This document shows, one piece after another, positions 43,690-47,150 of a stretch of 64,000 bases of DNA. The DNA is taken from the NCBI RefSeq assembly GCF_054482525.1, contig NZ_CM137006.1, one strand, 5' to 3'. The notes below the pieces were generated by a model. It was not told where the DNA came from, made no database searches, and was given only the letters and a program-made list of their open reading frames with translations. Both the position numbers and the translations under genes were made by a program. Positions within the stretch are counted from its first letter, which is position 1. Every line of letters starts with the position of its first letter.

Positions 43690-44358
43690 TCCTTCCTCAA
43701 TCTTGAGTAACCCCGTCGTTGAAGGGTTACTCAATTCATCCTGATTATACGCACTGCCATGGTGCAACTGCTTCAAATTAAAACTCTGGTCTGACTTCAA
43801 ATAATTATCATATTATTTATTTGCGTAACGGGATATCAGAAAAAGATATTTAGCCCATTAATTTATTAGGATGTTTACATCGGATTTATGATTAAGTGTG
43901 GTATTATTTATTAGCGAAACGTTTCTCTCTTGATTTTTTTGCGCATTCATCAATTTTTCTTATTTTAAATTTACAATACCTTTGGCGATTGAGTTCTCTT
44001 TGGGGTGATTGATAGCCGTTAACTGACTGTTTTATGAGAAAAAGTGATATAACTTTTTATTCATTGCATAGCAGAAAATGTGATATTGCACGCACTATGT
44101 AATAACTTCTCCCATTGGCCTGGAACAACTGAACTTATTGAACTATGTTAGAAAATACGTCAGTTTAAGTATCTGCCTGAACTGGCAAGGTTAAGCACAA
44201 TGATATATCGGCGCGTATTCCGTTGCATAAGTGTGCAAAAAAAGTGGAAGACGTATCGAGATTTGTGCGTCTGATCGAGACATGTTTAAAAATGGCTTGC
44301 CATAATTAACGTTGTATGTGATAACAGATTTCGGGTTAAACGAGGTACAGTTCTGTTT

Positions 44359-44502
44359 ATGTGTGGCATTTTCAGTAAAGAAGTCCTGAGTAAACACGTT
44401 GACGTTGAATACCGCTTCTCTGCCGAGCCTTATATTGGTGCCTCATGCAGTAATGTGTCAGTTTTATCTATGTTATGCCTGCGGGCGAAGAAAACAATCT
44501 AA
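44359..44502 (+). CDS. yobF: Small protein YobF (first gene of the yobF-cspC operon)
   Basis: Read directly from DNA: ATG at 44359 gives [47 protein letters not shown], 47 aa; ends 12 bp before cspC. Confidence 0.8.
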
Positions 44503-44514
44503 GGAATTTTTCAA

Positions 44515-44724
44515 ATGGCAAAGATTAAAGGTCAGGTTAAGTGGTTCAACGAGTCTAAAGGTTTTGGCTTCATTACTCCGGCTGATGGCAGCAAAGACGT
44601 GTTCGTACACTTCTCCGCTATCCAGGGTAATGGCTTCAAAACTCTGGCTGAAGGTCAGAACGTTGAGTTCGAAATTCAGGACGGCCAGAAAGGTCCGGCA
44701 GCTGTTAACGTAACAGCTATCTGA
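44515..44724 (+). CDS. cspC: Cold-shock-domain protein CspC
   Basis: 69-aa [72 protein letters not shown]; RNP1/RNP2 motifs. Confidence 0.95.
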
Positions 44725-44770
44725 TCGAATCCACTGATCTGAAGTGTGAATACGCTTCAATCTCGCTATA

Positions 44771-44797
44771 AAGCCTCGCCGAATGCGAGGCTTTTTA
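44771..44797 (+). terminator. Intrinsic terminator downstream of cspC
   Basis: AGCCTCGC-CGAAT-GCGAGGCT hairpin followed by a T5 run. Confidence 0.8.
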
Positions 44798-44889
44798 CTT
44801 TGCTTTATCTTCGCTCCTGGCGTTCGGATATTTGCCCGCCGCGTGATTCGCGTTACACTTGCGGCCTTTAGTATCCTGCCGGAGTTGTC

Positions 44890-45699
44890 ATGTCGTTTTC
44901 CTGTCCACTTTGCCATCAGCCTCTTTCGCGTGAAAAAAACAGCTATATCTGTCCCCAGCGACATCAGTTTGATATGGCGAAAGAAGGGTATGTCAATCTG
45001 CTGCCCGTTCAGCATAAACGGTCTCGTGATCCGGGCGACAGCGCGGAAATGATGCAAGCACGCCGCGCATTCTTAGATGCCGGACATTATCAGCCGCTGC
45101 GTGATGCAATTGTCGCCCAACTGCGGGAACGGCTTGATGAAAAGGCCACGGCGGTGCTGGATATTGGCTGTGGTGAAGGGTATTACACACACGCATTTGC
45201 CGATGCGCTGCCCGAAATCACCACGTTTGGCCTGGATGTCTCGAAGGTAGCGATAAAAGCGGCGGCGAAACGCTATCCGCAGGTCACTTTTTGTGTTGCT
45301 TCCAGCCACCGTTTGCCGTTTTCCGATACCAGTATGGACGCCATAATACGTATTTACGCGCCGTGTAAAGCAGAAGAATTAGCGCGAGTAGTGAAGCCTG
45401 GCGGTTGGGTCATTACTGCCACGCCGGGACCGCGACATTTGATGGAGCTGAAGGGGCTGATTTACAATGAAGTACATCTTCATGCACCTCATGCAGAACA
45501 ACTGGAAGGTTTTACATTACAGCAGAGTGATGAGTTGTGTTATCCGATGCGTCTTCGCGGTGACGAAGCCGTCGCATTATTGCAGATGACGCCGTTTGCC
45601 TGGCGTGCGAAGTCAGAAGTCTGGCAAACACTGGCAGCAAAAGAAGTGTTCGACTGCCAGACGGACTTTAATATTCACCTCTGGCAGCGTTCTTATTAA
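44890..45699 (+). CDS. rlmA: 23S rRNA m1G745 methyltransferase RlmA
   Basis: 269-aa ORF with N-terminal zinc-finger cysteines (CPLCHQ…CPQRH) and SAM-binding motif LDIGCGEG. Confidence 0.9.
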
Positions 45700-46262
45700 C
45701 CGTGGAAGTGCGTCCAGAGGATCTGGACGCCGATGCCGATCAGCACCAGCCCGCCGAGAATTTCCGCTTTTTTCCCAATAATTGAGCCGATAAAGCGACC
45801 AACCATCATCCCTAATGTCGACATAATCAAGGTTGCACAACCAATGGCCAATGCGGTCGCGATAATGTTGACCTGAAGGAAAGCAAGACCAACACCCACA
45901 GCCATGGCATCCAGGCTGGTGGCAATCGCGGTGGTTACCAGTAGCCAGAAACCGTGCCGACGGCGCGGCTCTTCATCTTCATCATCTGCGCCACGAAAAC
46001 CCTCAATAATCATTCGCCCGCCGAGGAATATCAGCAGCACAAACGCAATCCAGTGATTCCATTCAAGGACAAACCGGCTGGCTAACATGCCCATTCCCCA
46101 GCCGATCAGCGGTGTCAGGGTTTCGACGGCACCAAAAATAAGGCCGGTTCGCAACGCTTCAGAAAATTTCGGTTTATGGAGGGTGGCACCTTTACCGATT
46201 GATGCAGCAAATGCATCCATCGACATACCAAACGCAAGAAGAACAGTAGCAGTGATATTCAT
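45696..46262 (-). CDS. mntP: Manganese efflux pump MntP
   Basis: ATG (complement 46260-46262) gives [33 protein letters not shown]…; 188 aa; the track ORF 45696-46505 includes the leader in-frame. Confidence 0.9.
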
Positions 46263-46490
46263 GACAACGTCCTGACCGGGGTATCCATAAAACACATCAT
46301 CGCCCCCAGCAAACATGCATACATGAACAACAAGCCGCGATGGGTTTTCGCGTTCATGCAGGCATAGCGATTGATGTGCATATGGTCTCGCCTGACTGAA
46401 AGTGTTCAGTCCGTACGTGCCACGTTTTGCAACGAGTATGTTGACACGTACATTTCCGGAATCTGGAAATCGGCTACTCCCCAAATGAGG
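46263..46490 (-). promoter_or_regulatory. mntP 5' leader, expected to contain the Mn2+-responsive yybP-ykoY riboswitch (extent approximate)
   Basis: A roughly 230-nt untranslated leader precedes mntP; assignment relies on established knowledge of the E. coli mntP leader, not on a fold I could verify by eye. Confidence 0.5.
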
Positions 46491-46691
46491 GCGCAACCTT
46501 AACATATTTTGAGAATATAAAACAACTGTTGGAATATATTATTTCATTGCTTTATTGATAACGATTTTCATTTAGATTTATATATCAATGAAACGTTAAA
46601 ATAAATAACAAATAAGGGAAGAGGTAATATAGCCTTAGCTATGTCTGATTATTAAAAATACACTAAACATAGCTTTGGCTAAATTCATAAC

Positions 46692-47150
46692 TTATTGAGT
46701 TGAAACGAGAAGCTTATAAATTTTTTCCAGATCGTCGATATTTCGAACGCGGATTAACAGCCGACGCTGTTCTAATTGCATCACCAACACGCCATCTTCC
46801 GACAAGTTCATCGCTTTGATTCGGCTATATTCAATCCAGACATTGGCGAAGAAAAAACCTTTTTGTTTAAAGATGATCTTCGGAACGCGGATCCAGAATA
46901 TATAAAAACCCATCAGAGCCAGTGCACTTAATAACCATGTTGTTATTAGCGCGCCATGATTCGTGACGTTGTTATAGATAAGAATGACAATCAATCCGAC
47001 GAAGATAACGCTATCAATGCGACCACGCCGGAGCAAAGGAATTGCCAGCAGGGTGGGGCCGTTACGGCGGGGCATGATGAACTGATCGTAGATCGCGAAG
47101 GCCAGGAGTGCGGCGATGAAAAGAATCAGTACCAGGTCCGTGATTGTCAT
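46692..47150 (-). CDS. yobD: Inner-membrane protein YobD (DUF986)
   Basis: 152-aa hydrophobic [34 protein letters not shown]…. Confidence 0.85.

Follow-up and report, generated by a model that had tools for sequence, protein, structure and literature searches.

The very probable complete regulatory region of the Escherichia coli manganese exporter gene mntP: riboswitch leader, conserved promoter and predicted MntR and Fur sites

The regulatory region of the E. coli manganese exporter gene mntP (yebN) has been described by Kalita 2022, Prakash 2024 and Stephen 2025. A crystal structure, co-transcriptional probing and Rho studies of the mntP leader are already reported, and the K-12 element is presented as experimentally validated, its aptamer having been crystallised (PDB 4Y1M). 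According to the literature, the K-12 allele binds Mn2+ and its expression is raised in response. The riboswitch controls translation, and Rho-dependent termination in the leader and early ORF, partly relieved by Mn2+, has been shown experimentally. MntR is stated to be an activator at the mntP promoter, and Fur regulation of the gene has been reported; MntR, Fur and H-NS all act on this promoter, where the binding of Fur and MntR relieves the repression by H-NS. The region is also said, in papers citing them, to have been described by Waters 2011, Dambach 2015 and Price 2015.

E. coli possesses a second member of the yybP-ykoY riboswitch family, the alx (PRE) element. This element is likewise translational, likewise precedes a Mn2+ exporter gene and likewise uses a P1.1 switch helix. 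It differs in lacking P2, in its three-way junction, in its L3 and in carrying intrinsic terminator elements, and it responds to alkaline pH. The Firmicute members (L. lactis yoaB, B. subtilis yybP and ykoY) exhibit the same aptamer architecture with a conserved core of L1 and L3, but they are reported to control an intrinsic terminator and to act at the level of transcription. For the operators, the closest described relative is that of E. coli mntH, which in K-12 contains the same 9-4-9 MntR palindrome (AAACATAGC-N4-GCTATGTTT) with a Fur box nearby. The mntH gene has a single MntR box that adjoins the gene start and represses, whereas mntP has two imperfect boxes, 40 bp apart and about 150-190 bp upstream of the start site, which activate according to the literature. 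In the K-12 sequence, no more than about 35 nt separate the MntR box from the annotated mntH ATG, and a small ORF, ypeD (b4819), is annotated over the mntH start (L084:2188-2277); the K-12 annotation has a leader ORF for mntH and none for mntP.

Here we describe the corresponding region in a 64-kb stretch of DNA (64,000 nt, hereafter the window). The gap between yobD and mntP (46263-46691, 429 nt) is, with a probability that we put at about 95%, the entire control region of mntP, the manganese exporter gene of E. coli. As such it is an already known system and an ordinary find. The gene and its ribosome-binding sequence are as follows.

45696..46262, minus strand: mntP coding sequence, 188 aa plus stop, Mn2+ efflux pump (NF008546, PF02659, annotation of PCN033 and K-12)
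46270..46273, minus strand: Shine-Dalgarno sequence AGGA of mntP, 7 nt 5' of the ATG (direct reading of the sequence)

The mntP ORF starts with the ATG at 46262-46260 on the minus strand and ends at 45696. Its 188-aa product matches the NCBIfam MntP equivalog NF008546 with 414.6 bits over positions 1-188 of 188, a full-length match that confirms the start at 46262 proposed in an earlier note on this DNA. Pfam PF02659 also matches the product, and the same coding sequence is labelled mntP in the annotations of E. coli PCN033 and K-12. The AGGA at 46273-46270 is the sole good ribosome site for mntP and is kept in relatives. Upstream of mntP lies yobD (46692-47150, DUF986), and the gene order manZ-yobD-mntP-rlmA is also found in the K-12 annotation. 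The 701-nt segment 46100-46800, which spans the gap, matches E. coli PCN033 at 100% identity, and 5422 of the 5426 complete E. coli genomes contain it. At its other end, the minus-strand mntP converges on rlmA, a plus-strand gene at 44890-45699. The two genes share 4 nt at their 3' ends (45696-45699), both stop codons included, which leaves no intergenic room for a terminator. Further on, the cspA thermoregulator model RF01766 matches 44339-44799 on the plus strand (137.6 bits, E-value = 2e-36). This match spans the leader and the coding region of a cold-shock-family gene downstream of rlmA, called cspE by PGAP in PCN033.

Compared with the same locus in K-12, the 429-nt region differs at six positions, only one of which, in the P4 loop at 46404, falls in the riboswitch aptamer. 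Single-base changes also affect the MntR box B spacer, the margin of the Fur-like box and the stretch that separates the Shine-Dalgarno sequence from the AUG. An extra C at 46344 lies in a variable hairpin; it opens a 40-codon ORF and extends the open stretch in frame with mntP to 92 codons. The operator boxes, the promoter, the switch sequences and the Shine-Dalgarno sequence are all intact. No functional difference between this mntP allele and the K-12 allele is expected.

The leader contains the aptamer and its helices, all on the minus strand.

46263..46488, minus strand: mntP 5' untranslated leader, about 226 nt (transcription start placed at about 46488 from published landmarks)
46379..46487, minus strand: yybP-ykoY Mn2+ aptamer, four-way junction (RF00080, RNAalifold, covariation)
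46487-46481/46385-46379, minus strand: helix P1.1
46474-46472/46392-46390, minus strand: helix P1.2
46470-46465/46457-46452, minus strand: helix P2
46451-46445/46419-46413, minus strand: helix P3.1
46434-46431/46426-46423, minus strand: helix P3.2
46411-46405/46400-46394, minus strand: helix P4
46472..46484, minus strand: L1 block UUGGGGAGUAGCC, 5' side of the metal-binding core (little or no variation in 69 orthologues)
46435..46444, minus strand: L3 metal-binding loop UCAACAUACU (invariant at all but one position in 69 orthologues)
46382..46393, minus strand: 3' block AGGCGAGACCAU, 3' strands of P1.2, L1 and P1.1 (invariant in 69 orthologues)

The earlier note had pointed to the yybP-ykoY riboswitch known for the E. 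coli mntP leader and had proposed a covariance-model search of the minus strand, in which the absence of a significant hit would have counted against this reading. A permissive Rfam scan exhibits a significant RF00080 match at 46394-46490 on that strand (41.9 bits, E-value = 5e-9), and this match, together with the covariation described below, supports the reading. The score is 3.1 bits lower than the curated gathering score of 45. The alignment ends at 46394, after P4, and leaves uncovered the 3' GAGACC strand that provides the 3' strands of P1.1 and P1.2. For calibration, K-12 and 12 orthologous loci were scanned with the same model. The K-12 element (locus L083, 1162-1258) obtained 41.6 bits, and the orthologues ranged from 35.5 to 53.1 bits with five above 45. 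Since the validated K-12 element also falls below the cut-off, the shortfall belongs to the model and not to the present sequence.

Comparative evidence for the aptamer comes from 80 Enterobacteriaceae mntP loci, from which 69 distinct aptamer regions were aligned. RNAalifold, run unguided, predicts all of P1.1, P1.2, P2, P3.1, P3.2 and P4, with compensatory changes in 17 of 35 pairs. When the six-helix structure listed above is imposed on the 69 orthologues, standard pairs occupy 93.2% of the cells and compensatory changes occur in 18 of the 34 pairs. No column shuffle out of 500 attains these values, and sliding the 3' partners reduces the paired fraction to 26-47%. The core blocks are invariant or nearly so in the same orthologues: GGGGAGUAG of L1 (46482-46474), UCAACAUAC of L3 (46444-46436) and GAGACC (46389-46384). 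The pairing of the 3' block AGGCGAGACCAU with the 5' strands is supported by both RNAalifold and covariation. With the transcription start at 46488, residues A11 and A48 of the published numbering correspond to 46478, within L1, and 46441, which becomes the first L3 nucleotide. The aptamer sits directly upstream of mntP and downstream of a conserved promoter block. In contrast to alx, this element possesses P2 and an mntP-type L3. Being one loop base apart from the K-12 aptamer, the present leader would be expected, by analogy, to bind Mn2+ and to be inducible as the K-12 allele is.

Between the aptamer and the ribosome-binding site we identified two further elements.

46292..46379, minus strand: platform helix 46379-46366/46304-46292 around a variable hairpin, 46365-46315 (free and aptamer-enforced folds)
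46278..46289, minus strand: switch segment (alternative pairings, minimum-free-energy fold)

The platform helix covaries, with CG/UA at 46370-46300, UA/CG at 46369-46301, GC/AU at 46368-46302 and AU/GC at 46375-46296. The inner hairpin (46365-46315) is unconserved and is deleted in Enterobacter-type leaders. The minimum-energy fold of the whole leader has -84.1 kcal/mol (z = -2.67), and in this fold P1.1 and L1 are broken and alternative pairings are formed. Enforcing the aptamer yields -77.0 kcal/mol, a cost of about 7 kcal/mol relative to the minimum. Two alternative pairings are predicted. The first joins UAUGG (46289-46285) with CCAUA (46385-46381) in the 3' half of P1.1, and the second joins CCCC (46281-46278), which adjoins the Shine-Dalgarno sequence, with GGGG (46482-46479) of L1 and P1.1. 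All four segments are invariant in 76 sequences, which agrees with the switch pairings but lends them no covariation support.

Published co-transcriptional probing offers landmarks along the leader. In those experiments, the aptamer is complete at a transcript length of about 124 nt, from which a 14-nt polymerase footprint is to be subtracted, and a Mn-dependent disruption of L1 and P1.1 occurs at about 205 nt. Counted from 46488, the aptamer ends at nt 110 and UAUGG occupies nt 200-204. The modelled switch pairings are thus consistent with the published switching point near nt 205 and the aptamer completion near nt 110. In the same paper, probing revealed no clear effect of Mn on the ribosome-binding site itself, and the occlusion of this site, the last step of the mechanism, is a prediction.

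Every structural trait of the yybP-ykoY family that lends itself to computation is present in this leader or, for the alternative pairing of P1.1, predicted. Taken as a whole, the leader would operate as follows. When Mn2+ is bound, the aptamer would hold L1 and L3 together and stabilise the P1.1 switch helix. When Mn2+ is absent, UAUGG (46289-46285) and CCCC (46281-46278) would invade P1.1 and L1 beside the ribosome-binding site. In this off state mntP would be poorly translated, and the untranslated RNA would be exposed to Rho-dependent termination. The Mn2+ binding, the translational control and the Rho-dependent termination in this scheme are carried over from published work on the K-12 allele, which is nearly identical. 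What distinguishes mntP from the Firmicute switches is a long platform helix together with a ribosome-binding site that is predicted to be occluded, with Rho as a back-up.

The extra C at 46344 creates one further reading frame in the leader.

46259..46381, minus strand: 40-codon ORF, probably not a gene (PGAP hypothetical protein WP_000547919.1 in some strains)

The three final bases of the P1.1 3' strand form the AUG of this ORF, whose stop codon overlaps the mntP start as AUGA, a classic arrangement for translational coupling. PGAP calls WP_000547919.1 in PCN033 and in an O157:H7 strain, and other genomes with the identical sequence carry no such call. On this basis the ORF might be regarded as a real leader peptide, coupling ribosomes to mntP or shielding the leader from Rho, which does terminate within it. 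We consider this very unlikely. In K-12, the strain where the regulation was worked out, the 1-nt deletion at 46344 cuts the ORF to 27 codons with a different tail. The exact 82-nt allele is found in only 918 of 5422 complete E. coli genomes (about 17%). In most genera AGG, AGA or UGG stands in place of the AUG and indels shift the frame, and across genera the ORF is anywhere from 0 to 79 codons long. The product has no match in Pfam or NCBIfam. The only Shine-Dalgarno-like bases in front of the AUG are the invariant GAGA of the metal-binding core, and the binding of Mn2+ would hide the AUG, contrary to the observed induction by Mn2+. The switch and ribosome-binding sequences account for the conservation seen in the 3' part of the ORF (around UAUGGAUACCCCGGUCAGGAC). 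No uORF is mentioned in the two main papers on the mntP leader, and a search across a paper library listed none tied to mntP. Broken in K-12, a minority allele and not conserved, the ORF was rejected as unlikely to be a real gene, and on the sequence comparisons above it is very probably a false PGAP gene call. There is likewise little chance that the ORF is translated in the roughly 17% of complete E. coli genomes with the extra C and constitutes a lineage-specific layer of the riboswitch; if it were, its translation would add this layer through ribosome coupling to mntP or through protection of the leader from Rho.

A scan for intrinsic terminators found one terminator-like site in the leader against 0.4 expected, namely the hairpin 46352-46336 followed by GCUUGUUGUU. 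This site would be needed if the leader acted mainly through an intrinsic terminator, as the transcriptional yybP-ykoY switches of Firmicutes do. Such a mode of action is extremely unlikely here. A stem of just 5 bp goes with a poor U-tract; in K-12 the structure is weakened by a G-to-A change at 46338 in addition to the deletion at 46344. The segment is unconserved and is missing in Enterobacter-type leaders, and the published work describes translational control with Rho-dependent termination and not an intrinsic terminator; in the published assay on the T1 template without Rho, pause bands only were seen. The hairpin being not conserved, the candidate terminator was rejected.

The reading frame of mntP is open for 92 codons upstream of its start, up to the TAA at 46541-46539. 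The earlier note had stated that it stays open for 81 codons without a convincing start. This description is accurate: the furthest in-frame upstream ATG, at 46505, is 81 codons above the mntP start, and neither this ATG nor the other in-frame candidates (TTG 46496, TTG 46484, ATG 46316 and GTG 46295) is preceded by a Shine-Dalgarno sequence. The note had also taken the long open frame as a sign of a structured leader, an argument that does not hold. The chance that a random 92-codon stretch contains no stop is about 1%. Because of the 1-nt indel at 46344, K-12 has only 30 open codons above mntP, and 80 related loci have between 3 and 92. As its length is not conserved, the open frame is a strain-specific accident by sequence comparison and not a signal. 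The reading of these 92 codons as coding, with an MntP of up to 269 aa from ATG 46505 (an ORF listed as such) or from another in-frame start, is effectively refuted by this same variation in K-12 and the 80 relatives, by leader indels that are not multiples of three, by the missing Shine-Dalgarno sequences, by the position of ATG 46505 upstream of the inferred transcription start, by the 188-aa protein already covering the whole NCBIfam model and by a leader conservation that tracks RNA helices rather than codons.

Upstream of the transcribed leader, the region exhibits a promoter and several candidate operators.

46496..46525, minus strand: inferred mntP promoter, -35 TTGTTT (46525-46520), 18-nt spacer, extended -10 TGtTAAGGT (46504-46496)
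46557..46575, minus strand: Fur-like box CTAAATGAAAATCGTTATC, 14/19 to the Fur consensus, centre at about -78
46583..46604, minus strand: left arm of an imperfect inverted repeat with the Fur-like box (inverted-repeat calls in the window and in L059)
46625..46646, minus strand: MntR box B, AGACATAGC-TAAG-GCTATATTA, 3 mismatches to the mntH box AAACATAGCnnnnGCTATGTTT, centre at about -148
46665..46686, minus strand: MntR box A, GAATTTAGC-CAAA-GCTATGTTT, 3 mismatches to the mntH box, centre at about -188

The G+C content is 23.0% at 46500-46690 and 25.4% at 46491-46691, compared with 50.2% for the whole window. The AT-richness noted earlier for 46500-46690 is therefore real, and the proposal that this segment is the likely promoter and operator region agrees with the two MntR boxes and the Fur-like box found inside it and with the conserved promoter. 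The promoter block TTGTTTTATATTCTCAAAATATGTTAAGGTTGCGCC is almost invariant over about 78 species, and its position suits a transcription start at about 46488; the positions given for this start and for the operators are drawn from sequence, conservation and secondary literature. A simple consensus promoter scan gave 2 hits against 2.2 expected, none at the conserved promoter, which is below the threshold of the scan; such a scan is uninformative in AT-rich DNA.

For the MntR boxes, the reference AAACATAGCAAAGGCTATGTTT was taken from the DNA upstream of K-12 mntH, and the whole 64-kb window was searched for AAACATAGC-N4-GCTATGTTT with up to 3 mismatches in the 18 specified positions. Exactly two matches were obtained, against 0.00 expected, and they lie 40 bp apart. 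A search for MntR boxes in the AT-rich segment, as the earlier note had suggested, is thus answered by two boxes. Box A begins 5 nt past the yobD stop codon and is conserved as ATAGCnnnnGCTAT in relatives. Across 76 species, box B keeps its ATAGC and GCTATAT almost without change, and the half-sites of box A are conserved too. We predict that 46625-46646 and 46665-46686 are MntR operators.

The two MntR palindromes are also complementary to each other, forming 19-nt arms that are 84% complementary and 22 nt apart (46615-46696). In RNA of the yobD sense, the predicted fold is a hairpin (-22.6 kcal/mol) that immediately follows the yobD stop codon and precedes U-rich sequence. Sub-threshold matches to mir-282 on both strands of 46615-46696 were discarded as spurious, being the two palindromes pairing together. 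Matches to the Leu_leader and PK-repZ families of Rfam were set aside as noise (E-value > 0.4).

The element AAATGAAAATCGTTATC matches the 19-bp Fur consensus GATAATGATAATCATTATC at 14 of 19 positions, a level reached by 96 of 2000 shuffles of the AT-rich region (4.8%) and, in the 64-kb window, by five other places that score at least 14. The suggested search for a Fur box thus leads to a site whose consensus match alone is modestly unusual and which is conserved: AAATGAAAATCGTT (46573-46560) is nearly invariant in 76 species amid a variable spacer. Given this conservation and the literature on Fur and MntR binding, the box at 46557-46575 is likely the Fur site of mntP. Within the same variable spacer, TTAAC (46599-46595, at about -110) is invariant in 76 Enterobacteriaceae species. 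It falls within an imperfect inverted repeat, in the left arm, and the Fur-like box is the right arm. The TTAAC element may represent a degenerate second Fur site or may be bound by some other factor.

These elements suggest the following course of regulation at the promoter. Transcription would start at about 46488 from the conserved promoter, in AT-rich DNA that H-NS would silence. Mn2+-loaded MntR at the boxes near -148 and -188 and Fur at the box near -78 would relieve this silencing. The roles of MntR, Fur and H-NS again come from published work on the K-12 allele.

The region described here does not change existing knowledge, the mntP leader being among the best-characterised metal riboswitches. 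It has a consequence for annotation: scans at the gathering threshold of Rfam release 15 under-annotate the enterobacterial mntP riboswitch, the K-12 reference included, and default Rfam annotation thereby overlooks it in E. coli. Finally, the footprints in 76 species give precise coordinates to the predicted MntR, Fur-like and promoter elements of mntP, and they draw attention to the conserved TTAAC arm.
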